In this document: piece after piece, positions 13,079 to 62,670 of the stretch
Numbering within the stretch: the first letter of the stretch is position 1
Layout of the letters: each line of letters opens with the position of its first letter
From: an uncultured Bacilli bacterium
Lineage (GTDB): Bacteria > Bacillota_I > Bacilli_A > RFN20 > CAG-826
Reading direction: 5' to 3'
NCBI GenBank assembly: GCA_944349595.1
Contig: CALVNF010000002.1
Span: forward strand, 4,386 to 68,385
DNA: 64,000 bases
Translations under genes and position numbers: made by a program
Notes under the pieces: generated by a model
Databases searched by the model: none
Told to the model about the DNA's origin: nothing
The model's input: only the letters and a program-made list of their open reading frames with translations

Positions 13079-13588
13079 ATGATGAAAAAAGAATTAAAAA
13101 GCATTGAATTAGATGATTTAAAAGAATTACAAACGATGTTAAAAGATTTTTGGACAACACAACTCGTAGAAGCAAGTAAAGCAGATATTTTAGAAGATAT
13201 TAGAAGATTATTAAGCCCGAAATGTTATTCTTATTTAATAATGTGTGATGATAATATTGCGGGTTTTATATATATTAATGAAAAATATGGATATGTTAAT
13301 AACATTGAATATTTATATATAAAAGAAAAATTTAGAGGTAATGGATTAGGATCTTTTGCTTTAAGTAAAATTAAAGAAATATTGAAAGAAGACGGATTAG
13401 ATAGAGTTCAAATAGAAGTAAATCCATCAAATTTAAAGACTTTAAAACTTTATCATTCACTTGGTTTTAATAATATTGATACATTAACTTTATCAACTGG
13501 AATTGTTGGAGATACTGAAGTTAAAAATATTTTTGGTTTAGATTTTAAAATAAATAAATTAAGTTTATTTGCACATAAAAAACAATAA
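13079..13588 (+). CDS. GNAT family N-acetyltransferase
   Basis: AGGAGG RBS. Motif A is RGNGLGSFAL within an IEYLYIKEKFRGNGLG context. Confidence 0.75.
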   Translation: MMKKELKSIELDDLKELQTMLKDFWTTQLVEASKADILEDIRRLLSPKCYSYLIMCDDNIAGFIYINEKYGYVNNIEYLYIKEKFRGNGLGSFALSKIKEILKEDGLDRVQIEVNPSNLKTLKLYHSLGFNNIDTLTLSTGIVGDTEVKNIFGLDFKINKLSLFAHKKQ

Positions 13589-13616
13589 AAACTCTGCAAA
13601 ACCTCAATATTTTTTA
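13587..13616 (-). repeat. Copy A of the dispersed ~30-bp repeat (minus orientation), just after the GNAT stop
   Basis: Plus strand reads aaaactctgcaaaacctcaatattttttaag, the reverse complement of AAAAAATATTGAGGTTTTGCAGAGTTTT. Confidence 0.8.
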
Positions 13617-13690
13617 AGAAAAGTAGTTTTTAAGTAGTTTTTTAGGATTGTATTAGTATATTTTTGACAATTTTTTAGTATAATAAAAAC

Positions 13691-14248
13691 ATGAAAAAAA
13701 GTGTTTTACTAAATTTGCTAGTGTCATTATTTTTAATTACGGGATGTCAAACATCTTATAAATTAAATTATGATGTTAGCTTGATTTATGGAATTGGAAA
13801 ATATCCAAGGTGGGCAGATTTGTTAGAAGAGCCAAATCATGATGAAAACTATTTTAGATATATTGATATGAAATTATTTTCTTCGTTAGATGATTTGCTA
13901 AATTATTTAAACAATCCATATTATTTTAAATATGAAACAAATAATGAATATATTAAAGTTAGAATAGAAAATGAAATTGATTTTAGCAAATTAAATTTAC
14001 TTGTTACTTGTAAATATGAGGGTACAGGTTCATATGTTCATTTTGCAAATGTGAAAGATAATAAAGTGAACATTTATTCATATTGTGGAGAGGTTGTTAC
14101 TGAAGATATTGCCTTTAAAAGTTTAATTATTCCAGTTAAGAAAGAATATAATTTGGATGAGATAGAGGTAAAATATCATTATGAAATTTTAAAAGCAGAA
14201 GATATTGCAAATATCTGTAAAACTTATGGTAATAAATACTATTATTAA
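13691..14248 (+). CDS. Hypothetical lipoprotein
   Basis: MKKSVLLNLLVSLFLITGCQ (lipobox ITGC). Confidence 0.6.
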   Translation: MKKSVLLNLLVSLFLITGCQTSYKLNYDVSLIYGIGKYPRWADLLEEPNHDENYFRYIDMKLFSSLDDLLNYLNNPYYFKYETNNEYIKVRIENEIDFSKLNLLVTCKYEGTGSYVHFANVKDNKVNIYSYCGEVVTEDIAFKSLIIPVKKEYNLDEIEVKYHYEILKAEDIANICKTYGNKYYY

Positions 14249-14274
14249 AAGCAAAAATTAATTATAATTTTTAT

Positions 14275-14949
14275 ATGAAAAAAATTGACGATAAATATTT
14301 TATTAAAGATAAAAAAGTAAACTATAATCCTTCAATTGAACAAGTGCTTACAAATGATGAAGTTATTCTTTGGAAAGGAAAACCAAGGAAATTATCTTTT
14401 ATTTTATCTATCATTTTCAAATTTTTACCATTTGTTATTATATGGCTAGCAATTGATATATCTTTAATTGTAATGATGTCTAGTTTTTTCTCTGAGATAC
14501 CATTGCCTGGAATTATTTTTTTGATAATCTTTTTTATCTTACATTTATTACCAGTTTGGATATGGATTTCTTCTATAATTACTGCCTCAAGAAGACAAAA
14601 ATTAGAAGAATATGCCTTTACTGGAAGTAGAATTATTATTAAAACTGGTTTTATTGGTGCAAATATATCTAGTATTAATTATTCATCAATTTCTAGTGTA
14701 AATTTAAAGATTGGAATTATTGAAAGATTATGTAAAGTTGGAGATATTTATATTGTTGCGGATAATAAAAAATATATTTTAGAAGATATTAAAGATCCAT
14801 ATTTTATTTATGAAAAATTACAAAAAATAGCTAATGATATAAAATCAGATATAATTTATCCAAATAATTATCGACCTAGTGAAAATAATGGCTATAAAAC
14901 AAGTTATAATCCAAAAGAAGTTGATAAAATTATTAAAAAAGATAAATAA
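14275..14949 (+). CDS. Membrane protein with a bacterial PH-like (YdbS/YdbT, DUF304-type) domain
   Basis: DEVILWKGKP motif followed by two TM helices, the DUF304-like arrangement. Confidence 0.45.
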   Translation: MKKIDDKYFIKDKKVNYNPSIEQVLTNDEVILWKGKPRKLSFILSIIFKFLPFVIIWLAIDISLIVMMSSFFSEIPLPGIIFLIIFFILHLLPVWIWISSIITASRRQKLEEYAFTGSRIIIKTGFIGANISSINYSSISSVNLKIGIIERLCKVGDIYIVADNKKYILEDIKDPYFIYEKLQKIANDIKSDIIYPNNYRPSENNGYKTSYNPKEVDKIIKKDK

Positions 14950-14954
14950 ATTAT

Positions 14955-17831
14955 ATGAGTGAAACTTATAATGATATTAAAAATGCTCTTAATAAAGCAT
15001 TTATAGATTATAACTTAGATTCTGTCGACTCATTATGTCCATCTTTTTTATATAATAATAAAGAAGAAAATAAAAAAATAATTTCAACTTTAAAAGAAGA
15101 ATTTAAAAAATGTGAAGAATTTTATATTTCCGTTGCATTTATTACATATTCTGGACTTCAAATTTTAAAAGAAACATTAAAAGAAATTAATGATAAAGGT
15201 ATTAAAGGAAAAATTTTAACAAGCGATTATTTATGTTTTACTGAACCAAAAGCTTTGAAATTTTTGCAAGATAATTTTAATAATATTGAAGTTAAAATGT
15301 ATAAATCATCTGATCTTGATGGTTTTCACACAAAAGGTTATTTTTTTAAACAAAAAGATGATATCTATAAAATTATTATCGGATCTAGTAACATTACTGC
15401 AAAAGCTTTAACAGTTAATCAAGAATGGAATACTGAATTAATTTCCACAAAAGATGGAAAATTAATAAAAGAATTATTTGATCAATTTAATTTATTATGG
15501 AATAAATCGACCGATTTAAAAGATTATATAAATACATATACTAAAATTTATGAAGAAGCCAATAAAGAAAAAGTTATATTAAATGTTGATAATATAATTA
15601 ATCAAAAAATAGAACCAAATTCAATGCAAATAGAGTTTAGTCAAAAATTTAAACAACTTATTGAAAATGATGGTAAAAGAGGTTTATTAATTTCTTCTAC
15701 TGGAACTGGAAAAACATACGCAAGTGCATTTGCTTTAAAAAATGTTAACGCTAAAAAAGTTCTTTTCTTAGCTCATAGAACAACATTATTGATTCAAGCT
15801 ATATCTGCTTATCAGCGAATTTTTCCTAATTCATCTTTTTCAATTCTAACTGGAGATAAAACTTATATTAAAAATTTAAATGATGTTTCATATTTTGATA
15901 ATAATGAATATGATTTTGTATTTTCAACTTGTGAGATGATGTCTAAAAAAATTGACGAATTTATTAACGCTAAAAAATTTGATTATATTATTATTGATGA
16001 AGTTCATAGAGCGGGTTCAAATACATATCAAAAAATATTGAATTATTTTAAACCTAAATTTATTCTTGGAATGACTGCAACACCTGAAAGAACCAATGAT
16101 GAAAGTTTGATTTTTAATTTATTTGATCATAATGTTATTTTTGAAATTAGATTAGAAGATGCCCTTGATTATGGTTTGTTATGTCCTTTTCATTACTATG
16201 GAATAACTGATTTAAAAGGAATTAATGATGAAACATATGACAAACAAGACTTTAATAAATTATTTAGTAATGAAAGAGTTGAATATATTATTAAACAAAG
16301 CAATTTTTATGGATATAGCGGTGATAGATTAAGAGGTTTAATTTTTGTCTCAAGAAAAGATGAGGGAAGAAGACTTGAAACTTTATTGAATCAAAAAAAT
16401 TATAAAACTAAATTTTTAGATGGCTCTTTTTCATCAAGCGAGAGAGAAAAATACTTTAGATTACTTGAAGAAACTAATAAAAATAATGAATATTTAGATT
16501 TTATTATTTCTGTTGATATTCTTAATGAAGGCGTTGATATTCCAGAAGTTAATCAAATAATAATGTTAAGACCAACTCAATCAAGCATTATTTTTATTCA
16601 ACAACTTGGTAGAGGTCTAAGAAAATGGAAGAATAAAGATTTTGTAACAATTATTGACTTTATTGGAAATTATGATTCAAATTATATGATAGCTAAAGCA
16701 TTTTCAGAATCTGGTAATAAAGAACAAGCTAGATTAGTTGTTACATCTTCGTTTATTCCTGGAATTTCTACAATTGAATTTGACGAAATTGCGCAAAAGA
16801 AAATATTTGAATCAATTAAGAAAACTAATTTTGATACTATGTCGAACTTTAAAATCGAATATATGCATTTAAAAAATAGAATAAATAGAATTCCAAATTT
16901 GACTGATTTTTATGAATTTACTTATTTTGATCCATATAGAATTATTGAAAAATTTAAATCTTATCAAGATTTTCTTTTAAAAATTGAAAAAGATTTAAAT
17001 TATTCACAAAAAGAACTTGAATATTATCGATTTATTTCAAAAATTATATCTTCTGGATTAAGATTAGATGAAGTTAATGCTCTTGAATATCTAATTAAAA
17101 ATAAGAATTTAACTAAATATTTAGATGAAAAATTAATTTCTTTAAATAAAAAATTAACAATTATTAATGAATTTAATTGTAGTTTTTATGGAAAAAACAA
17201 TGATTCTTTAAGTTTAATTAATAGTTCATTAAACATTAGTGAAGATTTTGATGAAATGTTAAAAAATTTTTCATTTTTAGATAATATTAATAACTTAATA
17301 TTAATGTCTAAATTAAGGAATAATAAATTTTATGGAAAAAAATATAAAAATTCTGATTTATGTTTAAATTCTTTATATTCAAGAGAAGATATTTCAATTA
17401 TTTTTAATTGTAAAGTGAATAGAGCTAGTACAATTTATGGTTATCAATATTTAAAAGAAGAAAATGTATTTCCTATTTTTATTAATTATATAAAAACTCC
17501 AGAAATTTCTGATGCCACTAGATATGAAGATATGTTTATAAATAGACAAAAGTTTCAATGGAATTCAAGACACGGTGAATATATTGAATCAAAAAACATG
17601 CAAACTTTAATTAATGCTAAAAATAATAATACAAAAATTTATTTATTTGTTAGAAAATCAATTGATGAAAATAGCGGAAGTAACAAACATTATTTTTTAG
17701 GTGAAATGAGTGTGATAGATTTTAAAGAAATTATGAGAAATAATTATAAATATGTTTTGTTTAATTTTGCTTTAAGCGATGAGGTAAGAAGTGATTTATA
17801 TGAATATTTTAAAAAGGATATAAATAATTAA
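14955..17831 (+). CDS. PLD-family (HKD) nuclease / SF2 DEAD-DEAH helicase fusion protein with a large uncharacterised C-terminal domain
   Basis: HKD motif GFHTKGYFFKQKDDIYKIIIGSSNIT (HxKx4Dx6GSxN). Helicase motif I STGTGKTY, motif II IIIDEVHRAG, motif III GMTATPER, motif VI QQLGRGLR. About 320 aa follow with no recognisable motif. Confidence 0.75.
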   Translation: MSETYNDIKNALNKAFIDYNLDSVDSLCPSFLYNNKEENKKIISTLKEEFKKCEEFYISVAFITYSGLQILKETLKEINDKGIKGKILTSDYLCFTEPKALKFLQDNFNNIEVKMYKSSDLDGFHTKGYFFKQKDDIYKIIIGSSNITAKALTVNQEWNTELISTKDGKLIKELFDQFNLLWNKSTDLKDYINTYTKIYEEANKEKVILNVDNIINQKIEPNSMQIEFSQKFKQLIENDGKRGLLISSTGTGKTYASAFALKNVNAKKVLFLAHRTTLLIQAISAYQRIFPNSSFSILTGDKTYIKNLNDVSYFDNNEYDFVFSTCEMMSKKIDEFINAKKFDYIIIDEVHRAGSNTYQKILNYFKPKFILGMTATPERTNDESLIFNLFDHNVIFEIRLEDALDYGLLCPFHYYGITDLKGINDETYDKQDFNKLFSNERVEYIIKQSNFYGYSGDRLRGLIFVSRKDEGRRLETLLNQKNYKTKFLDGSFSSSEREKYFRLLEETNKNNEYLDFIISVDILNEGVDIPEVNQIIMLRPTQSSIIFIQQLGRGLRKWKNKDFVTIIDFIGNYDSNYMIAKAFSESGNKEQARLVVTSSFIPGISTIEFDEIAQKKIFESIKKTNFDTMSNFKIEYMHLKNRINRIPNLTDFYEFTYFDPYRIIEKFKSYQDFLLKIEKDLNYSQKELEYYRFISKIISSGLRLDEVNALEYLIKNKNLTKYLDEKLISLNKKLTIINEFNCSFYGKNNDSLSLINSSLNISEDFDEMLKNFSFLDNINNLILMSKLRNNKFYGKKYKNSDLCLNSLYSREDISIIFNCKVNRASTIYGYQYLKEENVFPIFINYIKTPEISDATRYEDMFINRQKFQWNSRHGEYIESKNMQTLINAKNNNTKIYLFVRKSIDENSGSNKHYFLGEMSVIDFKEIMRNNYKYVLFNFALSDEVRSDLYEYFKKDINN

Positions 17832-17832
17832 T

Positions 17833-18222
17833 ATGAAAATAGTAAATGTAGTTGCGGCAATAATAGTTAAAAATGATTTAATTTTTATAACTCAAAGAGG
17901 TTATGGGGAATTTAAAGACGGTTGGGAATTTCCAGGTGGAAAAATAGAAGAAAACGAAACTCCTGAAAATGCCTTAAAAAGAGAGATTAAAGAAGAATTA
18001 AATGCTGATATTGAAGTTGACAATTTCTTGATGGACATTGATTATGATTATCCAAACTTTCATCTACATATGAAAGTTTATTTTTGTCATTTATTAAAAC
18101 CTCATATTGAATTATTAGAACATGAAAATGCATTATGGGTTAAAAAAGAAGATTTAAAAAATATTAATTTTTTACCAGCTGATAAATTAATTATTAAAAA
18201 TATATTGAATTTAAAAATTTAA
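17833..18222 (+). CDS. NUDIX hydrolase (MutT-like)
   Basis: Nudix box GGKIEENETPENALKREIKEELN. The start lies 1 nt after the stop of the PLD-helicase gene. Confidence 0.8.
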   Translation: MKIVNVVAAIIVKNDLIFITQRGYGEFKDGWEFPGGKIEENETPENALKREIKEELNADIEVDNFLMDIDYDYPNFHLHMKVYFCHLLKPHIELLEHENALWVKKEDLKNINFLPADKLIIKNILNLKI

Positions 18223-18286
18223 TATTTTGATCAATTAATTTAAATGGGAATTACGTAAAAATAAGATAAGAAAGGTATTATTAAAC

Positions 18287-18916
18287 ATGAATAATGAAAA
18301 AGATATTAAAAATATATATTTTCTAGGTGATTCTATTACATATGGTCATGATGATTTAGTTCATGGAGGTTATGTAAATCAAGTTAGAAATGAATTAGAT
18401 CAAAATAAATTTAATATTATAAATTGTGGTGTAAGTGGTGATAGAGTAATAGATTTAATAAATAGACTTGATTATATATTTAATAAAGAAAGAAATAATA
18501 ATAGTGAATTAGTTTTTATTTTTATCGGGATTAATGATACAAATCTTGGTCTTAGCGAAGTTATTAGTCAAAATGAATTAAATTTTAGACTTAAACATTT
18601 TTATATTGATTATAAAGAATTAATTAATTTATTAATTAATGTATATCAAGTTAAAAAAGAAAATATTGTTTTATTAACATTAATTAATATAAATAAAGAT
18701 GAAATATATAATAATTATGGTCAATATTTTGATAATAAAGTAATTGAAAAATTTAATGAAGAAATATTAAAAATTAAAGATGAATATAATTTAGATAGTA
18801 TTAATTTATTTAATGAATTAAAAAAAGAAGATTTTTATGATGGACTACATCCAAATTATAATGGACATAAAATAATTAAAGATTTAATATTAAAATATAT
18901 TAAAAAGGAATATTAA
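18287..18916 (+). CDS. SGNH/GDSL hydrolase family protein
   Basis: Block I FLGDSITYG and block V DGLHPN. Confidence 0.75.
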   Translation: MNNEKDIKNIYFLGDSITYGHDDLVHGGYVNQVRNELDQNKFNIINCGVSGDRVIDLINRLDYIFNKERNNNSELVFIFIGINDTNLGLSEVISQNELNFRLKHFYIDYKELINLLINVYQVKKENIVLLTLININKDEIYNNYGQYFDNKVIEKFNEEILKIKDEYNLDSINLFNELKKEDFYDGLHPNYNGHKIIKDLILKYIKKEY

Positions 18917-18918
18917 TT

Positions 18919-19875
18919 ATGTGTACAGCAATAAAATTAAAATATAAAGATAATTATATTTTTGGTAGAAATTTAGATTTAGATTATCATTTTAATGAAA
19001 AATTAATACTATTAAATAAAAATTACAAATTCACTTTTAAATTTTTAAGTGAACAAAAATCTAATTATAATATGATGGGAATTGGAGCTTTAGTAAATAA
19101 TTATCCATTATTTTCTGAAGCAATGAATGAAAAAGGATTATGTATTGCAGGATTAAATTATCCACAAAACGCTTATTATTTTAATGAAATAAATAAAGAT
19201 AAAATTAATTTAGCACCTTATGAATTAATAATTTATTTATTAAATAATTGTTCAAATATTAACGAAGTAAAAGAAGTATGTAAAAATATTCAATTAATAA
19301 ATAAACCATTTTTAGATAATATGCCATTAAGTTATTTACATTTTTTAATTAGTGATAAAGATGGCTCGATTGTTTTAGAACCTGATAAAGATGGATTAAA
19401 AATATATGATAATATATTTGAAGTATTAACAAATAATCCTCCATTTACATATCATTTAGAAAATATTAAGTTATATTTAAATTTAACAAATAAATATTAT
19501 TCAAATAATTTAAATACAAATTATGATTTAAAACCATTTTGCATTGGAAGCAATGCTACTGGTTTACCAGGAGATTCTTCAAGTCCTTCAAGATTTATTA
19601 GAAGTGTTTATTTAAAAGAAAATTTATTAAAGAATATTTATGATAAAGACAATTTAATTAATGGGTTGTTCCATATATTTTCGAAAGTTAGCGTTATTAA
19701 AGGTGAAGCTTTAACAAGCGATAATAAAAGTGAAATTACAATTTATACATCAATTTTAGATCCAAAAAATATGACTTATTATATAAAAACATATGATAAA
19801 TTAGATTGTTTTGTTTGTAAATTTGATGATTATTTATCAAAATTTAGTGATATTTTAGCTTTAAATTTTAATTAA
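18919..19875 (+). CDS. Choloylglycine hydrolase / penicillin V acylase family (Ntn) amidase
   Basis: N-terminal MCTAIKL with the Cys2 nucleophile, and FGRNLD at the CBAH family positions. Confidence 0.7.
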   Translation: MCTAIKLKYKDNYIFGRNLDLDYHFNEKLILLNKNYKFTFKFLSEQKSNYNMMGIGALVNNYPLFSEAMNEKGLCIAGLNYPQNAYYFNEINKDKINLAPYELIIYLLNNCSNINEVKEVCKNIQLINKPFLDNMPLSYLHFLISDKDGSIVLEPDKDGLKIYDNIFEVLTNNPPFTYHLENIKLYLNLTNKYYSNNLNTNYDLKPFCIGSNATGLPGDSSSPSRFIRSVYLKENLLKNIYDKDNLINGLFHIFSKVSVIKGEALTSDNKSEITIYTSILDPKNMTYYIKTYDKLDCFVCKFDDYLSKFSDILALNFN

Positions 19876-19943
19876 ATTAAAAAATAACAAGATAAATTTG
19901 ACAATATTGTTAATTTTTTTCAAATAAATTTAAACCTTTTTTT

Positions 19944-19978
19944 AAAAAAAATATTGAGGTTTTGCAGAGTTTTTTGAT
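19944..19978 (+). repeat. Copy B of the dispersed ~30-bp repeat, intergenic upstream of the LysR gene
   Basis: aaaaaaatattgaggttttgcagagttttttgatat. Confidence 0.8.
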
Positions 19979-20042
19979 ATATAGTTTTTAAAACTAAGTA
20001 AAATTGTTGCGAATATTGTTATTTTTATTTATACTTTTTTAT

Positions 20043-20960
20043 ATGTTAAGTAAAGAATTTAAAAACTTTATGGTAGTTGCAGAAGTTTTGAGCTTCTCAA
20101 AGGCTGGCGAACAATTATTCATATCACCAGTTGCAATCATGAAGCAAATTAACTCATTAGAAGAAGAATTAAAATTGCAATTATTTATAAGAGCAAACAA
20201 AGGACTAGAATTAACAAAAGCTGGACAAGCTTTATATAATTCCGGGAAGTATATTAGCAATTTTTGTAAAACTGCTTTATTAAGTGCAACATCGGCTCAA
20301 TACGGAGATACAACTGATTTAGTAAGAATTGGAATTTCTTTAATGACTCCTGCTAATTATATTTTTGATGTGTGGAGTAAAAGTCCGGTTTTAAAAGATA
20401 AATTTAAAATTGAAATAATACCTTATAATAATGCCTTAGATTATGGAAATGCTATTTTAACTGAATTAGGAAAAAATATTGATGTTATTTTTGGTATTTT
20501 TGATGAAAAAATAATTGAGAGAGATAAGTTGTGTAATTATTTAAAACTAAAAGAACTTGAAATGAAATTTGCAGTTCCAATTAAAAATCCATTATCAAAT
20601 AAAATTTTATTAACACTTAATGATATTAAAGGCGAAACAATATTAATGGTTAAAAAAGGTATAAATAGTTATGTTGATTTATTAAGAAAATACCTAACTA
20701 ACAATGATGTTGAAATCTCTGATGTTGATTTCTTTAATTTTAAATCTTATGAAGCTGCAAATAGAACTGGTTTTCCAATTGTTAGTTTTGAAAATTGGAG
20801 AGATATACATACAAATTTAAACTTAATTAGTTTTGAAAAATCTTTTAAAGTTCCATATGGCGTAATGTATGCCTTAAATCCAAATCAAAATGTTAAAGAA
20901 TTTATAAAAACAGTATCTGAAATGAAAGATACAATATCTAAAATTTTAAAATTTAATTAA
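20043..20960 (+). CDS. LysR-family transcriptional regulator
   Basis: N-terminal HTH FMVVAEVLSFSKAGEQLFISPVAIMKQINSLEEELKLQLFIR is the LysR signature. The start is placed at the ATG at 20043 (MLSKEF...). Confidence 0.75.
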   Translation: MLSKEFKNFMVVAEVLSFSKAGEQLFISPVAIMKQINSLEEELKLQLFIRANKGLELTKAGQALYNSGKYISNFCKTALLSATSAQYGDTTDLVRIGISLMTPANYIFDVWSKSPVLKDKFKIEIIPYNNALDYGNAILTELGKNIDVIFGIFDEKIIERDKLCNYLKLKELEMKFAVPIKNPLSNKILLTLNDIKGETILMVKKGINSYVDLLRKYLTNNDVEISDVDFFNFKSYEAANRTGFPIVSFENWRDIHTNLNLISFEKSFKVPYGVMYALNPNQNVKEFIKTVSEMKDTISKILKFN

Positions 20961-20961
20961 A

Positions 20962-21609: not shown

Positions 21610-21664
21610 TATTTATTTATATTATATAAATAAATGATAAAATATTTTAGACGAGGTGATTAAA

Positions 21665-22417: not shown

Positions 22418-22419
22418 AA

Positions 22420-33039: not shown

Positions 33040-34036
33040 AGAATATTTATTAAATTATTTAATGAATTATTATAAATTTAGCGATAATTTAATTTTACTA
33101 GATGGACCTTGGGGTAGTGGAAAAACTTATTTATTAAACGAATTTATGAAATCATTTAATAAATGTAAAGTTATTTATTTATCTTTACTTGGAAAAAGAA
33201 GTGTAGATGAAATAAATACATCTTTATTTATGGAAATTAATCATAAACATATCGTTGATTCATTAGTTCCAAGCGCAATTAATCCTTTATTATATTTAGA
33301 AAATAATAAAAATAACTTAGATTTTTCATTAAAAATTAATAATAACAATCCATCTGCAATTGTTATTTTAGATGATTTAGAAAGATATGCTTCTAGTGAT
33401 TTTGATACTTTAATTTCATATTGTCAAAATTTAATTAGAAGCAATGCCAAAGTAATAATTGTTTCAAATATTTCTGAATTAGGTGGGGGTACAAGACATA
33501 ATTTTGAATTAAGTCTTGAAAAAGCTTTTGATAGAATTTTATATGCAGAATTATTTACAGATAATTTAATTAAAAGTAAATATCCAAATTTATTTAAATA
33601 TTTAGATGAATATTTAATTAGTTTAATTAATAATAATTATCGTGTTTTTGAAAAATGTAACTATTTATTTACATATTTAATTAATAAATATAATAATGAA
33701 TTTTTAAAAATATCCAAGAATTGCAAAGATTTTTATAAAATATTGTTATTTTATGTAATCAATATTATTAAATATGGTTATCGTGATCCATTTATTAGAT
33801 ATGAATTAATTAGAGATCATATTGACTATAGAATTGAAGGAGAAGTTAACAATATTATTAATAATCCAAAAGCTGCAAATGAAATTAAAGTTATACTAGA
33901 TTATTGCTTAAACTATAACAAAAATGATAATATGATTTACCAATTGAAAGATGAATATCAATTGATAACTGCAATTTATATGGAATATTTCTATTTAAAT
34001 GATACATTTATGAAAGATTTATTAAAAAAATATTAA
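33032..34036 (+). CDS. KAP-family P-loop NTPase, unusually short
   Basis: LLDGPWGSGKTYLL (the GxWGxGKT KAP Walker A) and AIVILDDLERY Walker B. Overlaps the pdxK 3' end by 8 nt. Confidence 0.55.
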   Translation: MNKEYLLNYLMNYYKFSDNLILLDGPWGSGKTYLLNEFMKSFNKCKVIYLSLLGKRSVDEINTSLFMEINHKHIVDSLVPSAINPLLYLENNKNNLDFSLKINNNNPSAIVILDDLERYASSDFDTLISYCQNLIRSNAKVIIVSNISELGGGTRHNFELSLEKAFDRILYAELFTDNLIKSKYPNLFKYLDEYLISLINNNYRVFEKCNYLFTYLINKYNNEFLKISKNCKDFYKILLFYVINIIKYGYRDPFIRYELIRDHIDYRIEGEVNNIINNPKAANEIKVILDYCLNYNKNDNMIYQLKDEYQLITAIYMEYFYLNDTFMKDLLKKY

Positions 34037-41434: not shown

Positions 41435-42691
41435 ATGACAAATAAGAGTAAAATATTGAGGTTTTGCAGTACTTTTTTGATATTAACTTTGTATTCTTTT
41501 TTAGTAAGTCTTTTCTTATTCGCTTTTAGTAAATTAAGTGTATTAATATTTAATTTTATAAATATTGAATTAAATTACGCGTTTTTAATACCATATTTTT
41601 TATTAATCGTTTTAGTTTTGCTCCTGGAATATTTTTTATTAAAATTAGCAGAAAAATTTGTCAATAAAGGATTTATTAAAAGACATAAAATTATTGGAAC
41701 AATTCTTTTAATAATTTTAACAATTGCAAGTTGTTGCTTAAGTTTTTTAATTGGATTACCATTTGGAACAGAAGCACCAAGTGTTTTAATTGCCTTTATA
41801 TTAGGTTTTTTATTTTTTAATTATTTAAGTGACGACTTTAAAAAATATTTTCCTGGAATTGGTTTTTCTATTGCTTTTTTAAATCCATTAGCTGGTTTAT
41901 TTTATAGTTTTGAGAATTTTAAAATAAAAATTCTAAATAAAAATAACTTATATTTTGTTTATGTTTTGTTAGTTAGTTATTTATTTTATATCTTATTAAA
42001 TGGTAACTATATTTATTCAAATTTTATTTATATTACTTCATATTTAGAGCCATTATATTTATGTTTTGTACCAATTATTGCAATAATTTCTTTTATTTTA
42101 GGTTTTTTATATAAAAATCTTTTCTATTTATTTAGATATTTAAGAAATAAATTTAGTTTTGTTATTTTTCTTATTTTGACTTTTATTTTAATTTTTGTTT
42201 TGAAATTTATTTCTAATGATTATGTTAATAATGGAGCAATCTTTTTTGAAAATATTTTAAATATTAAATCAATTTATTATTTATTATCATTAGTGTTTGT
42301 TCGTTTATTTTTAATGTTATTTTCATATAATACTAAATTAGCTGGTGGTAGAGTTGTTCCAACTTTAACTTTAGGTTATTTATTTGGATATTTATTTTGC
42401 AATATTTTATCTTATTTTGTAAGTCTAAATTCATCTAATGCAATTATTCTTTCAATAATATTTATGGTTTGTTTTTATGCAATTGTTAGTAATAATCATT
42501 TGACTTCATTAGCGATATCATTTTCATTTTTACCTTTTAATATTATTTTCTTACCAGCATTAATTGGATTAATTATTAACAAAGTTTTATGTCAAGTTAT
42601 TAAGAATAAATCAATGGTTAATTTGATTTATAATAATGATTTACAATTTAAAGTTTTTGATCAACTAAAATTAAAAGATTACATGGATTAA
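41435..42691 (+). CDS. ClC-type chloride channel / H+-Cl- antiporter-like membrane protein
   Basis: GLPFGTEAPSVLIA (cf. the GREGP motif) and GGRVVPTLTLGYLFG (cf. GxFxP). Polytopic. The true start may lie downstream of the repeat. Confidence 0.45.
   Translation: MTNKSKILRFCSTFLILTLYSFLVSLFLFAFSKLSVLIFNFINIELNYAFLIPYFLLIVLVLLLEYFLLKLAEKFVNKGFIKRHKIIGTILLIILTIASCCLSFLIGLPFGTEAPSVLIAFILGFLFFNYLSDDFKKYFPGIGFSIAFLNPLAGLFYSFENFKIKILNKNNLYFVYVLLVSYLFYILLNGNYIYSNFIYITSYLEPLYLCFVPIIAIISFILGFLYKNLFYLFRYLRNKFSFVIFLILTFILIFVLKFISNDYVNNGAIFFENILNIKSIYYLLSLVFVRLFLMLFSYNTKLAGGRVVPTLTLGYLFGYLFCNILSYFVSLNSSNAIILSIIFMVCFYAIVSNNHLTSLAISFSFLPFNIIFLPALIGLIINKVLCQVIKNKSMVNLIYNNDLQFKVFDQLKLKDYMD
41450..41483 (+). 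repeat. Copy C of the dispersed ~30-bp repeat, at the extreme 5' end of the ClC-like ORF
   Basis: aaaatattgaggttttgcagtacttttttgatat. Confidence 0.8.
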
Positions 42692-47784: not shown

Positions 47785-48912
47785 TTATTTTAAAATATTA
47801 CTTAATTTACCATTTAAAGGAAGATAAAAAGTGTTATCTTCCTTTTTATATTTTCCATTAAAATAATTATTTTTTAATTTTGTATAAAGAATACAAGGAT
47901 TATATTTTTCAAATAACATAACTTCAATTTCTTTTATAATTTTTAAAAAATATTGAGGTTTTGCAGAGTTTTTTAAAATTTTAATCGAATTTAGATATAT
48001 ATTTTTGTTTTTTTGGTAATAAGAAAAATAACCGATTATATTGTTTTTTTCATATATTAAGTAATAAATATAATTGTTATGAAATTTGTTAATTTCAAAC
48101 AAATTAAATAAGTTAAAGTAATCATTTTTATTTAAACAAATTTTTAAACTTAAATCAGTATTTTGTATTTTTCTAAATTCATATTCATCCCACAAACCAA
48201 TATGATCGTAATTACTAATCATTGTTAAAAAATTTTCATGAGATTCTGGAAATTGTTTATATATTGAATTTAATAGTTCTTTAACATCTTGTCTTTGAGT
48301 TAATTTATCGGCAGGACAGTTTGAAGAAATTGTAACAATATCATTTTCTTTAACACATCTTATTATATCTTTTTCAAAAACCAATATTAGAGGTCTAATG
48401 AAAGTAATTTTTTCTCTTGTCAAAAACATTTTTGGAGAAAAAGTGTCAATTCTTCCACCAGATATTTCATTCATAAATAATGTTTCTATTGCATCATCGG
48501 CGTGATGAGCAAAAGCAACTTTATTACATTTATATTTTTTAGCTGCTTTATTAATAATTGCTTTTTTCATTTTAGAACAAATTGAACATGGTAAATGATG
48601 GTTTTCTTTAGTATTTAATTTTAAAATTTGATATACATTTTTAGCATCATAAATTTTTAAATTATAACCAAAAGAAGAAAGATATTTTATTATAGGTTCA
48701 GGATTAAAATTATCAAATCCTAAATCTATCATAATTGGAACTATTTTAAAATTATTAAAAGAAAATTTAGAATAAAAATGTAAAGCGTAAAAAAGAAGCA
48801 TTGAATCTTTTCCACCCGAAATTCCAATTGCAATTTTATCTTCATTTTCAATTAAATTAAATTTTTTATCAGCTGTTCTAATGCAAGCTAAAATCTTTTT
48901 TATAGAATTCAT
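47785..48912 (-). CDS. PP-loop ATPase, TtcA-like tRNA 2-thiocytidine synthetase family, with a C-terminal extension containing a repeat copy
   Basis: PP-loop ISGGKDS. CSICSKMKK and C-x-K-V-A-F-A-H-H-A-DD (the CxxC/GHHxDD pattern of TtcA). The ORF is about 60 aa longer than typical TtcA. Assignment to TtcA rather than TilS is moderate. Confidence 0.55.
   Translation of the reverse strand: MNSIKKILACIRTADKKFNLIENEDKIAIGISGGKDSMLLFYALHFYSKFSFNNFKIVPIMIDLGFDNFNPEPIIKYLSSFGYNLKIYDAKNVYQILKLNTKENHHLPCSICSKMKKAIINKAAKKYKCNKVAFAHHADDAIETLFMNEISGGRIDTFSPKMFLTREKITFIRPLILVFEKDIIRCVKENDIVTISSNCPADKLTQRQDVKELLNSIYKQFPESHENFLTMISNYDHIGLWDEYEFRKIQNTDLSLKICLNKNDYFNLFNLFEINKFHNNYIYYLIYEKNNIIGYFSYYQKNKNIYLNSIKILKNSAKPQYFLKIIKEIEVMLFEKYNPCILYTKLKNNYFNGKYKKEDNTFYLPLNGKLSNILK
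47945..47974 (+). repeat. Copy D of the dispersed ~30-bp repeat, in-frame inside the 3' part of the TtcA-like ORF (antisense to it)
   Basis: aaaaaatattgaggttttgcagagtttttt, translated on the minus strand as ...ILKNSAKPQYFL... Confidence 0.8.
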
Positions 48913-49893: not shown

Positions 49894-50160
49894 ATGTTAT
49901 CAAAACAAGAAAAAGCCAAAATCGTAAAAGAATTTGGAAAAAACGAACATGATACAGGTTCTGATGCAGTTCAAATTGCTATTTTAACAGAAAGAATTAA
50001 ACAATTAACTGCACACTTAAAAGTTTCAAAAAAAGATGCGTCTGCTAGAAGAGGTCTTATGATACTTGTTGGTCAAAGAAGAAGTTTATTAAGACACTTA
50101 GCTGAAAAAGATAGAGATGCTTATGTTGAACTTTTAGTTAAACTTGGTATTAGAAAATAA
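49894..50160 (+). CDS. rpsO: 30S ribosomal protein S15
   Basis: MLSKQEKAKIVKEFG...GLMILVGQRRSLLRHL. The start is chosen at the ATG at 49894. An 80-nt structured leader lies upstream. Confidence 0.95.
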   Translation: MLSKQEKAKIVKEFGKNEHDTGSDAVQIAILTERIKQLTAHLKVSKKDASARRGLMILVGQRRSLLRHLAEKDRDAYVELLVKLGIRK

Positions 50161-50164
50161 GATT

Positions 50165-52438: not shown

Positions 52439-52444
52439 TTAGAT

Positions 52445-53206: not shown

Positions 53207-53211
53207 TTGAT

Positions 53212-54900
53212 ATGGGAGATAAGATTCGATTTGTTGCTTTAGGCGGTTTAGATTCTAATGGTAATAATTGTTATTGTTTAGAAATAAATGGTGACATTTT
53301 TGTTATTTCTGCAGGTATTGGATATCCTGATAAGTTTGCTTCAGGAATTGATTTTATAATTCCAGATTTTTCTTATTTAGTAGAAAATAAAGATCGTGTC
53401 GTTGCATACTTAATAAGTCACGGACATGATGATACTTTAGGAGCAATAACTTACTTATATGAAAAAGTTAAAGCACCAATTTATGCTTCTAAATTTACAA
53501 AATATTTATTGCAACAATTATGTAAACAAAGAAATGTTAATTTTGATAATTATGATGTGAGAGAACAAGAACCATCAAGTGAATTTTATGTAAAAGATCA
53601 CAAAATTAGATTTTTCCAAATAACTCATAGTCTACCAGAAACTTCTGGAATTGCTATCTCTACTAGTGAAGGAAACGTTGTTTTTTCAGGTGATTTTATA
53701 ATTGAAAGTAGTGGTAATAAATATTTTAATTTTGATTTTAAAGCATTAGCAAAATTATCTGAAGAAAATAACTTTTTATTATTAATGGATTCTTTAAATT
53801 CATCAAAAACTGGATATACAAGTCCAAGTCATCGAGTTTCAAGTTATGTAAGACATGCATTAAATGACTGTAATGGAAGATTGTATGTTTCAGTTTATTA
53901 TCAAAATATTTATAATTTTATTGAAATTATGGATGAATGTATAAAATCAAATAGGTATATTTGTTTTTATGATGAAGAGACATATGAAATTTATCATTCA
54001 ATATCAAGTCTCGGAATATATAATGTTGATCCACAATTTATTATACATGTTGACGATATTTCAAAATATAAAAATTCATCAATTTGCATTATTATTTCTG
54101 GAATGGGCGATTTACTTTATAGAAAAATTTCAATGCTTGCTTTAAAAGACATTTCCGAACAAAGATTTTATATTTCAGAGGATGACACATTTTTACTATT
54201 AACTCCAGCAGCTAGTAATTTTGAAGTTTTAGCAGTTTCTTGTTTAGATGAACTTTATAAAACCGATTGTAATGTTATTAATATTTCACGTAAACAAATT
54301 AAAAAGATGCATCCAAGCGAAGATGATATCAAACTTTTTATATCTTTAATTAATCCAAAATATTACATTCCAGTTAAAGGAGTCTATCAAGATTTAATTG
54401 CAAATGCTGAAGTTGCCGCTTCAATGAAAACAGGATTATCTCATAAAAATATTTATTTATTAGATAATGGAACAGCTATTGATTTTGTCAATGGAGAGAT
54501 TAAATTAAATTACATTGAAAATGATAAAGTAAAAGTTGGTTACTTAATGGTTGACGGAATTGGTGTTGGTGATGTCGAAAGTGGAATTATTTTGGAACGA
54601 AACAAATTATCAGAAGAAGGTATTGTTGTTATGTCATTATTGGTTTCATTATCTGCGAAAAAAATAATTGGTGGTCCAGATATTCAAATGAGAGGATATT
54701 TATATTTAAAAGAAAGCGAAACAATATTAAAAGGAATTGAAAATTTATTTATTGAGACCGTTAATAAATATTTAGAACAAGAAAAACCATTTAATAAAAA
54801 TGAATGTATTAGTGAAATTAAAGAATTAGTTTCAAAATATACAAGAAGAACAACACTAAGATGTCCAGTTATTGAACCTGAAATAATTTTGGTCGATTAA
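53212..54900 (+). CDS. rnj: Ribonuclease J family (metallo-beta-lactamase/beta-CASP), degenerate zinc motif
   Basis: GGLDSNGNNCYCLE and the beta-CASP architecture. The canonical HGHEDH motif reads HGHDDT here (last His replaced by Thr). Confidence 0.7.
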   Translation: MGDKIRFVALGGLDSNGNNCYCLEINGDIFVISAGIGYPDKFASGIDFIIPDFSYLVENKDRVVAYLISHGHDDTLGAITYLYEKVKAPIYASKFTKYLLQQLCKQRNVNFDNYDVREQEPSSEFYVKDHKIRFFQITHSLPETSGIAISTSEGNVVFSGDFIIESSGNKYFNFDFKALAKLSEENNFLLLMDSLNSSKTGYTSPSHRVSSYVRHALNDCNGRLYVSVYYQNIYNFIEIMDECIKSNRYICFYDEETYEIYHSISSLGIYNVDPQFIIHVDDISKYKNSSICIIISGMGDLLYRKISMLALKDISEQRFYISEDDTFLLLTPAASNFEVLAVSCLDELYKTDCNVINISRKQIKKMHPSEDDIKLFISLINPKYYIPVKGVYQDLIANAEVAASMKTGLSHKNIYLLDNGTAIDFVNGEIKLNYIENDKVKVGYLMVDGIGVGDVESGIILERNKLSEEGIVVMSLLVSLSAKKIIGGPDIQMRGYLYLKESETILKGIENLFIETVNKYLEQEKPFNKNECISEIKELVSKYTRRTTLRCPVIEPEIILVD

Positions 54901-54928
54901 AAACGCTGCAAAACTTTAAAATTTTTAT
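54901..54928 (-). repeat. Degenerate copy F of the dispersed repeat, immediately after the rnj stop
   Basis: Plus strand aaacgctgcaaaactttaaaattttt, matching the reverse complement of the consensus at roughly 24 of 31 positions. Confidence 0.5.
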
Positions 54929-54973
54929 TTTTATGTCTATAAATTATATCAATACTTTGATATAATTTTATTT

Positions 54974-57850: not shown

Positions 57851-58170
57851 TGGAAGTTGGAATTGATATTGTTGAATTAGAACACATTAAAGACGAAAAA
57901 TTATTAGCGAGTAAAATATTAAGTGATTCGGAATTTTTATTGTATCAAAAAAAAGAAAATAAATTACAATTTTTGGGTGGTAGATTTGCTGCAAAAGAAG
58001 CCTTAATTAAAGCTTTAGGATTGAGTATTCTTGGAACAAATTTAAAAGATATTGAAATTTTAAATAAAGAAAATGGAAAGCCATATCTTATATATAAAAA
58101 TAAAGAATACAAAGTTTCCATTTCTCATGAAAAACATTGCGCAATTGCAATTGTAATTGATGAAAATTAA
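57850..58170 (+). CDS. acpS: Holo-[acyl-carrier-protein] synthase
   Basis: MEVGIDIVELEHI...GGRFAAKEALIKALG. Confidence 0.85.
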   Translation: MEVGIDIVELEHIKDEKLLASKILSDSEFLLYQKKENKLQFLGGRFAAKEALIKALGLSILGTNLKDIEILNKENGKPYLIYKNKEYKVSISHEKHCAIAIVIDEN

Positions 58171-58187
58171 AAAAGAAGAGGTGAATT

Positions 58188-60344: not shown

Positions 60345-60346
60345 TA

Positions 60347-60631
60347 ATGATTTCAAGTGTTACTTTAGTATGTAGAGCAGAAGAAGTTTTAGAAAATGGT
60401 TATCGAATGGTTTCTTTTGATAATTTTAATGATGGCGAGGCTAAAACTTTTAGATTTAAAGTAAGATATTGGAACTCTTCTCCAAATTGTAAATTTATGT
60501 CATTTAAAGATGGTACTTTATTAGTTATAATGGGATCTTTAGCAAATGATGATAGTGGATTACCAATCATTGTCGCTGAAAGAGTTCAATATTTAGATAA
60601 TGGAAAAGAAAGGATTGCAAAAGATTTATGA
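60347..60631 (+). CDS. Small hypothetical protein (94 aa)
   Basis: Tightly coupled between pulA and plsC, with housekeeping-like composition and no recognised motif. Confidence 0.4.
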   Translation: MISSVTLVCRAEEVLENGYRMVSFDNFNDGEAKTFRFKVRYWNSSPNCKFMSFKDGTLLVIMGSLANDDSGLPIIVAERVQYLDNGKERIAKDL

Positions 60632-61425
60632 TTAGATTAATTGTTGCAATTTTTGTATTAGTTCCAAAAATTATATATTGGTATTTTTCCTGGATTTTAT
60701 ATTATTCAATTAAAAAAGATAAAATTCCATTAGAACAAAGATTTGCAAAAGTCCAATATGCTTGTATACAAGTTATTAAATATTTAAATATAAAAATTGA
60801 TGTTCATGGATTAGAAAAGTTTAATGTAAATGATGAAAATAAATATTTAATAATGTGTAATCATCAATCAATGATTGATCCATTAATTTTTATTGCATTA
60901 GCTTCAAGACCAATGAGCTTTGTTGCAAAAAAAGAAGTCATGAAATATCCTTTTGTTGGAAGAGTTCTAAAAATTTTAGATGGTAAAACTCTTGATAGAA
61001 ATGATTTAAAGAGTCAAGTCAAAACTATTTTAGAAATTGAAAAGAGTCTTAAAAATAATGAAATCGATTGGTTAATTTTTCCAGAGGGTAAAAGACAAAA
61101 AAGTCCATATGATGGAATTTTAACAATTCATCATGGTACTTTTAAAATACCTTTAAATACTTCAAAAGATCTATATGTCTGCAATTTATTTGGAACTTTT
61201 AGACCATTGCAATTTTTAAGATATCAAAATATTAAATCCTTAATTCAATTAAACATTGATCAAAAATTAACAATAGATGATTATAAGGAATTTAAAAGCA
61301 CTGATTTTGCAAATTATGTAGCAAATATAATGTCTGATGTTTATAATGAGCAAAAAGAAGTTGATATAAAAAAGTACAAAGTTAAAATCAAAAAGGAAAA
61401 GAAAAAATTAAAGAAAGCATCTTAA
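60628..61425 (+). CDS. plsC: 1-acyl-sn-glycerol-3-phosphate acyltransferase
   Basis: MCNHQSMIDP (NHxSxxD) and FPEGKRQ motifs, plus an N-terminal TM helix. Confidence 0.8.
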   Translation: MIRLIVAIFVLVPKIIYWYFSWILYYSIKKDKIPLEQRFAKVQYACIQVIKYLNIKIDVHGLEKFNVNDENKYLIMCNHQSMIDPLIFIALASRPMSFVAKKEVMKYPFVGRVLKILDGKTLDRNDLKSQVKTILEIEKSLKNNEIDWLIFPEGKRQKSPYDGILTIHHGTFKIPLNTSKDLYVCNLFGTFRPLQFLRYQNIKSLIQLNIDQKLTIDDYKEFKSTDFANYVANIMSDVYNEQKEVDIKKYKVKIKKEKKKLKKAS

Positions 61426-62670
61426 TTTTTTTGGATAAAGATTATTTCCTTTATTATTTGAAACTTTTATAAAGCCTAAATTAATGTTGTTATATGAAAC
61501 AATATAATAACCGTTTTCTTTATTTATATTTAATTGTTGTCCCGAAATATATTGCTTAAATTCATCGTACGTTAATTTTATTGCGCTATCATTATCTAAA
61601 TATCTTGAAAGAGCTAAAGATGGTTTTATCTTTTTATTTTCAATATCAAGAATTTTTAATCCATATCTTAAAACGTTAAAATATTTTAAATTTATTACAT
61701 TATTAAATCCATAAATTCCATTATCTGTTTTGTATAAGTTTTTAAAATTTAAGAAGTTTAATTCTTTCATTTTTACGTTTGAAAAATTGATATTATTGAA
61801 AAATATTGAGGTTTTGCAGTGTTTTTTGATTAAACAAATATATTGTCCTTCGCATTCAAATAAATATGGCATTATATAAATACCAATATTTTTATCACCA
61901 TTTACAAATTCATTATCTTTATTTAGATCAATTAATTCTAAATCTTCGTGTTTATTTAAAAATTTTTCAATTTGGTTTTCATTTTCTTGTTTTGATAATG
62001 AACAAGTTGAATAATATAAAGTTCCGCCATCTTGTAACATGTAATATGCATATTCAAGCAAATTTTCCTGCATGAATGAATATTTTTTAACTTTTTCTTG
62101 TGTCCAATCTTCTTTTGCAAATTCATTTTTTCTAAACATAAAAGATCCGCTACATGGGGCATCTAGAATAATTTTAGAAAACTTTTTGTTATAAAATTTA
62201 TATATTTTTTCAAAATCATTACAAGTTACAAAAACATTACTAAATCCATAATTTTCAATATTATTTGATAATATTTTTGCTCTTGAATAATTAATATCAT
62301 TTGAAATTAAGACCCCATTATTTTTTAATTTAATTGCAATATCAATGCTTTTTCCTCCCGGAGCAGCACACATATCTAAAATTATATCGTTTTCATTTAC
62401 ATCTAAAAATTTAGAAATCATCATAGATGCGGCATCTTGAATATAAAATACCCCATTATAAAATCTATAATCATTTCCTAAACTTTGTTTTGAATAATAC
62501 GCATTGTCAATGTATGGGTGTTTTTTATAAATGATATCAGAAACAAAAGTTTCATCATATTTAATTGTATTTAAAATAAAAGAGTAAGTTCTTTCCTTAT
62601 CAAACTCATTTATTAATTTTTCATATACATCTTTTGAATATTCTTTTTGTAGATAATCTAAAAAATTCAT
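61408..62670 (-). CDS. RsmB/RsmF (NOL1/NOP2/Sun) family rRNA cytosine-C5 methyltransferase with RsmF-like C-terminal domain
   Basis: SAM motif DMCAAPGGKS, catalytic DAPCSGSF and TCS. The C-terminus (GLKILDIENKKIKPSLALSRYL) matches the RsmF C-terminal domain. The start is taken at MNFLDYL. Confidence 0.75.
   Translation of the reverse strand: MNFLDYLQKEYSKDVYEKLINEFDKERTYSFILNTIKYDETFVSDIIYKKHPYIDNAYYSKQSLGNDYRFYNGVFYIQDAASMMISKFLDVNENDIILDMCAAPGGKSIDIAIKLKNNGVLISNDINYSRAKILSNNIENYGFSNVFVTCNDFEKIYKFYNKKFSKIILDAPCSGSFMFRKNEFAKEDWTQEKVKKYSFMQENLLEYAYYMLQDGGTLYYSTCSLSKQENENQIEKFLNKHEDLELIDLNKDNEFVNGDKNIGIYIMPYLFECEGQYICLIKKHCKTSIFFNNINFSNVKMKELNFLNFKNLYKTDNGIYGFNNVINLKYFNVLRYGLKILDIENKKIKPSLALSRYLDNDSAIKLTYDEFKQYISGQQLNINKENGYYIVSYNNINLGFIKVSNNKGNNLYPKKLRCFL
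61799..61830 (+). repeat. Copy E of the dispersed ~30-bp repeat, in-frame inside the RsmF-like CDS (antisense to it)
   Basis: aaaaatattgaggttttgcagtgttttttgat, translated on the minus strand as ...IKKHCKTSIFF... Confidence 0.8.

Follow-up and report, generated by a model that had tools for sequence, protein, structure and literature searches.

The window analysed here, a stretch of 64,000 nucleotides on contig CALVNF010000002.1 of an uncultured Bacilli bacterium, has a GC content of 23% with a positive GC skew throughout, and carries a single high-identity dispersed repeat. This motif has the consensus AAAAAATATTGAGGTTTTGCAG-N-GTTTTT and occurs in five near-identical copies (W1 to W5) and one degenerate copy (W6), the flanks of which are unrelated past ~35 bp. 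The six copies are located as follows:

13584..13618, minus strand: W1, AAAAAATATTGAGGTTTTGCAGAGTTTTTATT; over the stop codon (13586-13588) of a GNAT gene (13079-13588) and 73 nt before the gene at 13691; antisense to both
19945..19977, plus strand: W2, perfect consensus; between the CBAH gene (stop 19875) and a LysR-type gene (called start 20043), 70 nt past the CBAH stop and 66 nt ahead of the called LysR start; sense to both
41449..41480, plus strand: W3, variant GCAGTACTTTTTT; 22 nt past the decarboxylase stop (41428), in the first codons or the leader of the ClC gene
47942..47976, plus strand: W4, inside the minus-strand coding sequence of the TtcA-like gene (PP-loop plus degenerate GNAT), translated there as KNSAKPQYF; 163 nt past the rbfA stop and sense to rbfA
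54898..54926, minus strand: W6, degenerate, AAAAATTTTAAAGTTTTGCAGCGTTTTTAA; over the rnj stop (54900), with ftsK starting 48 nt further on; antisense to both
61796..61829, plus strand: W5, inside the minus-strand RsmF coding sequence, in the methyltransferase-PUA linker, translated there as KKHCKTSIFF; sense to the plsC-like gene (60628-61425), which converges on RsmF and overlaps it

The exact 12-mer GAGGTTTTGCAG is found five times, four times on the plus strand and once on the minus strand (13594-13605 (-), 19956-19967 (+), 41458-41469 (+), 47955-47966 (+) and 61808-61819 (+)), where dinucleotide-preserving shuffles expect 0.2 occurrences. All five strong copies have the 18-mer AATATTGAGGTTTTGCAG in common, and four of the five match a 31-mer consensus at no more than three mismatches, with 0 such matches expected. 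A profile built from the window copies recovers the degenerate sixth copy at 54898-54926 (-) with E=0.003 (E=5e-5 with a wider family profile) and finds nothing above noise beyond the six. These results bear out a preceding sequence-only reading of the same DNA, which had described a dispersed repeat at six loci: its coordinates are correct to within a few bases, and the gene contexts that it gave for the six copies are confirmed. A very weak look-alike, AAAAATATCCAAGAATTGCAAAGATTTTT, is seen at 33707-33734 (+).

In the window lineage, six copies occur in 72.7 kb, which is a density of about one per 12 kb. The copies bracket compact gene blocks, e.g., 13691-19875 and the block from ftsK to plsC. 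Only ~15% of the intergenic gaps in the window hold a copy, too few for a general promoter or terminator. From one copy to the next the distances are 6.3, 21.5, 6.5, 6.9 and 6.9 kb, near multiples of ~6.9 kb; a regular spacing is probably a coincidence, and the loci of relatives show none.

Read from one end to the other, the motif consists of an A-tract, the core TATTGAGGTTTTGCAG-N-G, and a T-tract. Dyad symmetry is absent, and what symmetry there is remains limited to the A and T runs at the two ends. Within the core, two direct GNGKTTTT half-sites may be discerned at a distance of 11 bp, i.e., on one face of the helix. Such a phasing, together with the A- and T-tracts on either side, would suit a protein that sits on one face of bent DNA.

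The repeat family in related genomes

An exact-match scan over one genome per species returned 86 places, the majority of them isolated matches by chance in unrelated phyla. A group of low-GC genomes that bear the labels "Bacilli", "Mollicutes" or "uncultured bacterium" shares the 18-mer together with the A-run and the GTTTTT extension. One of the carriers, CASDYC01, is a sister species whose shared proteins are mostly ~92-100% identical (range 84-100%); in a reverse alignment, the window corresponds to ~232-296 kb of an 879-kb contig of this genome. CASDYC01 carries orthologues of three window copies as well as further copies ~560 kb away and on another contig; in the ~0.94 Mb seen, the exact 18-mer occurs six times. 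Other carriers are JAFUEZ01 with four exact copies, CALVMF01 with two, RGIG5418, and three metagenome contigs from the Joint Genome Institute (JGI) or GenBank; a metagenome scan with a 24-base pattern found three contigs only. The consensus is stable across genera, with dialects among the relatives, such as GAGGTTTTGCAG versus GAGATTTGCAG.

Matches in the IMG/VR collection to a 15-mer are chance-like only and all lack the motif extension, and BLAST searches against phage and plasmid collections gave a best E of 2 or more, for which reasons a phage or plasmid origin is rejected. Rfam 15 gave no match at gathering scores, and none at the copies at E up to 5. A literature search covering the sequence as well as repeats in this group returned nothing relevant. 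Three open reading frames of 497, 372 and 172 aa (in L034, L025 and L011, where L and a number denote a related locus) had been considered as orthologues of the decarboxylase, the TtcA-like protein and the GNAT protein; tblastn refuted all three. The search for further copies and for a segmental duplication behind the six, on which the sequence-only reading had let the repeat stand or fall, clearly favours a real family, which extends beyond local duplication. Loci of relatives that were selected through the motif give densities of one copy per 3-10 kb, up to one per 3-4 kb, and the less biased loci that were fetched through proteins give roughly one per 10-20 kb.

Placement was evaluated on a pool of 360 kb of related loci, in which a dialect-inclusive profile at E<0.01 yields 37 non-redundant copies; gene calls in these loci are mechanical. 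Although 92.6% of the pooled DNA is coding, 25 of the 37 copies are intergenic (binomial p=5e-20). Eleven copies lie in co-directional gaps (seven sense, four antisense), five in convergent and four in divergent gaps, and the intergenic copies are distributed roughly by spacer length. With gap types and senses mixed in this way, the motif follows no rule relative to transcription. A bias towards 3'-ends within intergenic DNA was considered and is not significant after normalising for the spacer lengths of the three gap types. Relative to the G-rich (leading) strand the orientations are 24:11, or 19:11 when orthologous and duplicated copies are left out. This excess is weak and is expected of a G/T-rich word.

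The copies inside genes fall outside recognised or intact protein domains. One site is the RsmF linker that connects the methyltransferase and PUA domains, another the YjeF linker between the two domains of that protein (L065, aa 200-211), and a third the TtcA-like protein, in its degenerate GNAT part. In each case a convergent gene pair has little or no gap (rbfA/TtcA-like, plsC/RsmF, Endonuclease_1/YjeF), and the copy lies in the nearby opposing coding sequence: all three (3/3) are antisense within their own coding sequence and sense to the incoming convergent gene. Tandem and inverted arrangements are each represented by a sole pair, the former in L023 with a 41-nt period and the latter in L207 with 40 nt between the copies. 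Further contexts include the upstream region of rpsJ, where two copies are placed in tandem, a gap between ABC binding-protein and permease genes, and the upstream regions of metK and hpf.

Persistence of the motif at orthologous loci

The RsmF linker is the most instructive locus. It carries the motif in five lineages (window, L214, L216, L219 and L220), and in the relatives L214, L219 and L216, whose proteins are 60%, 47% and 40% identical to that of the window, variants are located at the same place. The RsmF genes of the window and of L220, which encode proteins with 49% identity, share the 20-mer GCAAAACCTCAATATTTTTC without a single change. The reading frame differs, giving HCKTSIFF in the window and HAKPQYF in L220, and the distance to the conserved EGQ motif is 14 codons greater in L220. 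In a set of 120 RsmF homologues, the peptide footprints C[KR]T..F and AKPQYF are nearly confined to the closest ~16 (plus P0098, 40% identical), and the ~100 more distant homologues have neither. The median protein length is 423 aa with a footprint and 429 aa without.

The other occupied sites likewise keep their length. The 62%-identical relatives of the TtcA-like protein have KNKNMKKLYF at the alignment columns of W4, with no gap and no motif, and copies thus form in place and not by insertion. The spacer between rnj and ftsK measures 56-78 nt with or without the motif. We conclude that conservation acts on the DNA and not on the protein or on RNA structure.

Counted by lineages, the motif persists in five at the RsmF linker, in three downstream of rbfA, and in two each at rnj, between nusG and rplK, at the phosphotransferase system (PTS) EIIC gene and at CBAH. 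Downstream of rbfA the copies occupy three positions within ~160 nt: in L226 (3935-3963) the copy is 76 nt closer to the TtcA-like stop, and in L216 (21223-21256) it is placed right at the rbfA stop. W6 has an orthologous degenerate counterpart after rnj in L218 and an identical one in the sister strain L225. Copies follow the PTS EIIC gene in both JAFUEZ01 and CALVMF01, with EIIC proteins that are 40% identical. In L224, where CBAH has a different gene context, a partial motif is located just downstream of this gene. The orientation is kept at the RsmF, rbfA, rnj and EIIC loci. It changes in the nusG-rplK gap, where CASDYC01 (L013) has an antisense copy and JAFUEZ01 (L008) a sense one, the NusG proteins being 58% identical and the identity of rplK being confirmed.

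Turnover is visible over short distances as well. W1 is exact in the sister genome L029 and differs at one base in L222, a strain with 95.3% nucleotide identity. At the W2 site, L222 has a degraded copy with 4-6 clustered differences between identical flanks. A faster-than-neutral change at W2 was considered and dismissed: the site ranks only among the top 5-10% most divergent 31-nt windows, which is suggestive of a short-patch change but not significant.

Candidate roles of the motif

We tentatively favour the reading that the copies are high-affinity sites, maintained at the boundaries of transcription units and evolving in place, to which a putative, conserved protein would bind in a sequence-specific manner. 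The motif would then be a clade-specific, asymmetric recognition sequence of ~30 bp that acts as double-stranded DNA. Its consensus would be held across genera, while individual sites would drift, re-form nearby and settle where they do the least damage. Copies would arise and be replaced in place via point changes or short-patch conversion rather than transposition, and a copy would be kept in the same region over long evolutionary time. Both the binding and its effect are what we infer from the DNA-level conservation and the regional persistence. As to the role, we lean towards an architectural or boundary element at operon ends, since the copies are located at transcription-unit boundaries and bracket compact gene blocks; it might serve, for example, as a protein roadblock or insulator between transcription units, or as a topological or loop anchor. 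The tandem pair of L023 and the inverted pair of L207 are as expected of protein-binding sites. A site for a chromosome-organising or regulatory protein was among the proposals of the sequence-only reading, and is the best supported of them, given the frame-independent conservation of the DNA, the lack of a tie to the direction of transcription and the regional persistence; the binding as such stays presumptive.

Known sites of this kind are parS/ParB, the Noc binding sites (NBS), MatP matS and the RefZ-binding motifs (RBMs). Like the motif, they occur in tens per genome, may lie in genes, are conserved in sequence and position, and act as double-stranded DNA regardless of transcription. They are, however, palindromic and bind symmetric dimers, whereas the motif is asymmetric with two direct half-sites at most, and its partner protein is putative.

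Several points weigh against this reading. The related loci were mostly fetched because they contain the motif, which biases densities and context counts. The divergence of W2 between close strains means that not every copy is under purifying selection. The near-identity of many copies of 29-31 nt per genome is unusual for a transcription-factor regulon and hints that the copies are duplicated or homogenised by some process. For the five copies between convergent genes, a promoter is not expected and a classical regulator role is unlikely. Lastly, the boundary or architectural role and the binding partner are both postulated.

Short dispersed DNA signals that are read by machines of the cell, such as uptake sequences, Chi, KOPS (FtsK orienting polar sequences), parS and REP (repetitive extragenic palindromic) elements, are few, and nearly all of them come from cultured Proteobacteria or Bacillus. 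The motif would add a non-palindromic signal of ~30 bp from an uncultured, very AT-rich clade of gut Bacilli with reduced genomes. There is unusually clear evidence of selection or homogenisation at the level of the DNA itself, with the same 20-mer in different frames and neighbourhoods kept down to 40% protein identity. If a partner protein exists, site and protein would give a new handle on how transcription units are delimited or chromosomes organised in very small genomes. For practical use, the motif is a sharp marker for the clade in metagenomes.

The main alternative, doubtful though credible, is an uptake-signal or self-recognition sequence, similar to the DNA uptake sequences (DUS) of Neisseria and the uptake signal sequences (USS) of Pasteurellaceae, that is spread by mutation together with biased uptake and recombination (molecular drive) and settles where it is least harmful. 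Known sequences of this type are short and lack a palindrome; they are dispersed in both orientations with an enrichment between genes, and occasionally form inverted pairs; they are tolerated in genes in several frames, show genus-level dialects and positions conserved between species, and have an extended form of ~30 bp with A/T tracts. The motif matches this with its two orientations, its strong intergenic bias, the one hairpin-forming inverted pair (L207), its in-gene copies in permissive linkers and differing reading frames, and a cross-genus consensus that is stable but comes in dialects. Orthologous positions are retained while single copies gain or lose consensus matches, and the phased A/T tracts within ~30 bp resemble the extended USS. 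The competence genes comEA and comEC are present in the window lineage, where they lie ~8-9 kb past the right end of the window in the 98.9%-identical sister strain L225, and in relatives.

The density speaks against this reading. Known uptake sequences occur about once per kb, and the motif, at one per 12 kb (in loci of relatives one per 3-10 kb), is about ten-fold sparser. It also differs in its longer high-information core and its Gram-positive host, and to our knowledge there is no case of sequence-specific uptake in Bacillota. comEA and comEC are widespread, also in species that are not transformable, and give no specific evidence for uptake specificity. Moreover, the orientation kept at most orthologous loci and the retention within small neighbourhoods suggest locus-specific selection, which a pure drive does not predict. 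The sequence-only reading had called the repeat far too rare for an uptake sequence. The rarity is real, but the verdict was too strong, because both orientations, the intergenic bias, in-gene copies in any frame and the genus dialects are all found as in uptake sequences. In its specific form, namely that the competence machinery of these reduced-genome gut Bacilli prefers DNA with the 30-mer and that the family is maintained by uptake-biased recombination, the proposal seems rather doubtful. If true, it would be the first such signal outside the Proteobacteria, and Gram-positive transformation could no longer be regarded as sequence-blind.

We consider it unlikely that the motif is a mobile or recombination site, be it a solo terminal repeat of an insertion sequence (IS) or of a miniature inverted-repeat transposable element (MITE), a REP-like element, or a recombinase site or half-site at junctions of gene gain and loss. 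Certain arrangements could be taken in this sense. The inverted copies of L207, 40 nt apart, have a MITE-like geometry, W3 sits exactly at the left junction of the ClC gene that is absent in L226, the motif or a remnant of it lies just downstream of CBAH in two non-syntenic contexts, and in L046 and L208 the motif is part of longer local duplications. Against this, occupied sites (RsmF, TtcA-like, rnj-ftsK spacer) show neither target-site duplications nor an increase in length, and orthologous loci carry degenerate copies instead of empty sites. No transposase, integrase or resolvase gene was found in the window or in the annotated loci L210-L226. The IMG/VR, phage and plasmid collections hold no match, and the same loci are occupied across genomes whose proteins share only 40-60% identity. 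A MITE-like or IS end remnant, as once proposed for these repeats, is unsupported, given the lack of an insertion footprint, of empty sites and of a transposase or recombinase in the window and the annotated related loci. The proposal of a recombination or target site retains weak hints, such as the position of W3 at the presence/absence junction; being non-palindromic, the motif is neither REP-like nor a full recombinase site.

REP elements and bacterial interspersed mosaic elements (BIMEs) of Enterobacteria and pseudomonads are similar in density (~1 per 10 kb), in lying between genes, often at operon ends and convergent junctions, and in being single, tandem or inverted; in E. coli they are bound by the host proteins gyrase and IHF. 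REPs are, however, imperfect palindromes with stem-loops, whereas the motif is without dyad symmetry or fold and also occurs inside coding sequences, and the associated IS200/IS605-like transposase (REP-associated tyrosine transposase, RAYT) is found neither in the window nor in loci L210-L226. The reverse complement of the core, CTCTGCAAAACC-TC, resembles a gix/hix half-site plus centre of the Hin/Gin invertases: it fits 8 of the 10 specified positions of what we take to be their consensus, TTNTCNNAAACC, and TC is presumably the gix centre. Unlike in such sites, the second, inverted half-site is missing; no inversions are seen between relatives, and no invertase or resolvase gene (PF00239) is present in the window or in loci L210-L226. 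A clustered regularly interspaced short palindromic repeat (CRISPR) array, with its direct repeats at regular intervals around unique spacers of 25-40 bp, does not apply to copies that are kilobases apart, and the one tandem pair (L023) has a period of 41 nt.

A signal in transcription or RNA, i.e., an unusual or antisense promoter, a hairpin-less terminator, a 3'-end stability element, or a target of a small RNA or an RNA-binding protein, is in our view quite improbable. Copies are located at transcription-unit boundaries, the forward strand ends in a T-run, the copies in RsmF, TtcA-like and YjeF are all sense to the incoming convergent gene, and the orientation is kept at the RsmF, rbfA, rnj and EIIC loci, all of which could be expected of such a signal. 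The folds, however, do not support it. On both strands, the six window copies and nine solo copies of related loci fold no better than shuffles. Exceptions are the inverted pair of L207, which would form a hairpin (z about -9), and loci with an ordinary hairpin terminator beside the copy. Terminators of the ordinary hairpin kind adjoin W4 (rbfA; terminator at 47816-47845, ~100 nt before the copy) and the copies of L008 (nusG), L040 and L046. As ordinary terminators adjoin several copies, a role as terminator substitute is rejected. Nor is the motif an intrinsic terminator: it contains no hairpin, a terminator scan places the ordinary hairpins elsewhere, one of them next to W4, and copies are also antisense and in divergent regions. 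The earlier statement that the repeat is neither an inverted repeat nor a terminator hairpin is borne out by a motif that is non-palindromic and without a significant fold, and Rfam gave no match even at the permissive threshold.

The statement that it is no sigma70 or sigma54 promoter holds equally. There is no -10 element at a fixed distance, and the spacing between GG and GC is 6 nt, where sigma54 has 12. With TTGAGG or TTGCAG taken as a -35 element of sigma70, the TAnnnT hexamers after the T-run are trivial at 23% GC. A leader peptide, TTG AGG TTT TGC AGA GTT TTT TGA, was discarded, the stop codon not being conserved among the copies. Of the 20 classified intergenic copies, nine would be misplaced as promoters, being antisense or between convergent genes, and eight as 3'-end RNA elements, being antisense or in divergent regions. 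The orientation flip at nusG-rplK and the small share of window gaps with a copy (~15%) argue in the same direction. None of the presumed consensus sequences of CtsR, CodY, MraZ, ComK, ComE/AgrA, PhoP/WalR, IHF and the ribonucleic antiterminator (RAT) seems to fit the motif.

Very improbable is a polar chromosome-maintenance signal, such as a Ter-like fork barrier, an FtsK guide similar to KOPS or to the SpoIIIE recognition sequence (SRS), or a Chi-like or parS-like site. The site is asymmetric, shows a mild leading-strand excess (24:11) and has a low to moderate copy number per genome; the Ter sites of Tus or RTP are similar to it in length. In fact, Tus-Ter, RTP-Ter, mTERF and Reb1/TTF-I sites are all asymmetric, 20-30 bp long, read as DNA and placed at the ends of transcription or replication units. 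The motif differs from them by its lack of a consistent polarity to replication or transcription and by copies far more numerous than Ter sites, and no homologue of the proteins that read these sites was found, no search having been aimed at one. The strand excess shrinks to 19:11 without non-independent copies, and the composition of a G/T-rich motif alone would give as much. A strict replication polarity like that of Ter, KOPS, SRS or Chi is not seen, both orientations occurring within 6 kb of one another in a window with constant GC skew, and the orientation flips at the orthologous nusG-rplK locus. The copies of the sister genome are spread over regions ~560 kb apart. The motif is unlike the palindromic parS, and the canonical 16-bp parS palindrome TGTTNCACGTGAAACA is absent from the window, where the best matches have 2-3 mismatches, which is the level of chance.

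A motif without dedicated function has practically no probability left: the A and T runs of the flanks do carry little information at 23% GC, but five exact copies against 0 to 0.2 expected by shuffles, unrelated flanks past ~35 bp, a mostly intergenic placement, DNA kept across reading frames and recurrence in other genera exclude chance in AT-rich DNA, segmental duplication and protein-coding constraint.

Gene neighbourhoods and further observations

The gene at 13691, which follows W1, carries a perfect TATAAT, the last base of which is 6 nt ahead of the ATG (13670-13693), and no Shine-Dalgarno sequence, and its mRNA may be leaderless. On the other side, CASDYC01 (L029) lacks the ABC-2 permease gene (11751-12968) as well as the terminal part of the ABC ATPase gene when compared with window positions 10909-13078. 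This indel adjoins the GNAT gene, not W1 itself.

Around W3, the window segment 41429-42720 corresponds to 9023-9131 in L226, a 62%-identity relative without the ClC gene. There, the decarboxylase gene is directly followed by a conserved segment with TATAATATTAGTGCTC, a hairpin and rimP in this order; in the window, the same segment comes after ClC.

The TtcA-like protein (47785-48912, minus strand) is a PP-loop ATPase fused to a C-terminal GNAT domain. Many of its homologues keep detectable GNAT motifs (YRxxGYGK), and in the window lineage the GNAT part is degenerate, with the DNA motif W4 taking the place of the acetyl-CoA-binding motif A. The convergent stops of rbfA (47779) and of the TtcA-like gene (47785) are 5 nt apart, and the rbfA hairpin terminator (47816-47845) falls within the TtcA-like coding sequence. 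At 49895-49947 (+), a weak match to the ribosomal S15 leader that stays below threshold (27.9 bits, gathering score 39.5, E=0.019) extends over the called rpsO start.

Near W5, the plsC-like gene and RsmF overlap by 18 nt (61408-61425). The start of RsmF is probably M21 (62670), and a pyrimidine-nucleoside phosphorylase gene begins 34 nt from the RsmF start on the opposite strand and runs off the window end.

In RGIG5418 (L046, 136-435 and 3056-3355), the motif is found inside a 300-nt direct repeat that consists of a hairpin terminator, the motif and an extended -10 promoter. A 25-nt repeat, TGGTTCGGGTGAATTACCAATCGAC, occurs at 414, 2726, 3031 and 3334 of the same locus with a spacing of ~303 nt, and nearby open reading frames have weak, sub-threshold Pfam matches to the PD-(D/E)XK nuclease domain and the CRISPR-associated Cas_APE2256 family. 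L208, a JGI contig with motif copies, encodes tandem proteins of ~95 aa (48-2572 and 8317-8616) with weak Nif11-like and zinc-ribbon matches, which are possibly peptide precursors.

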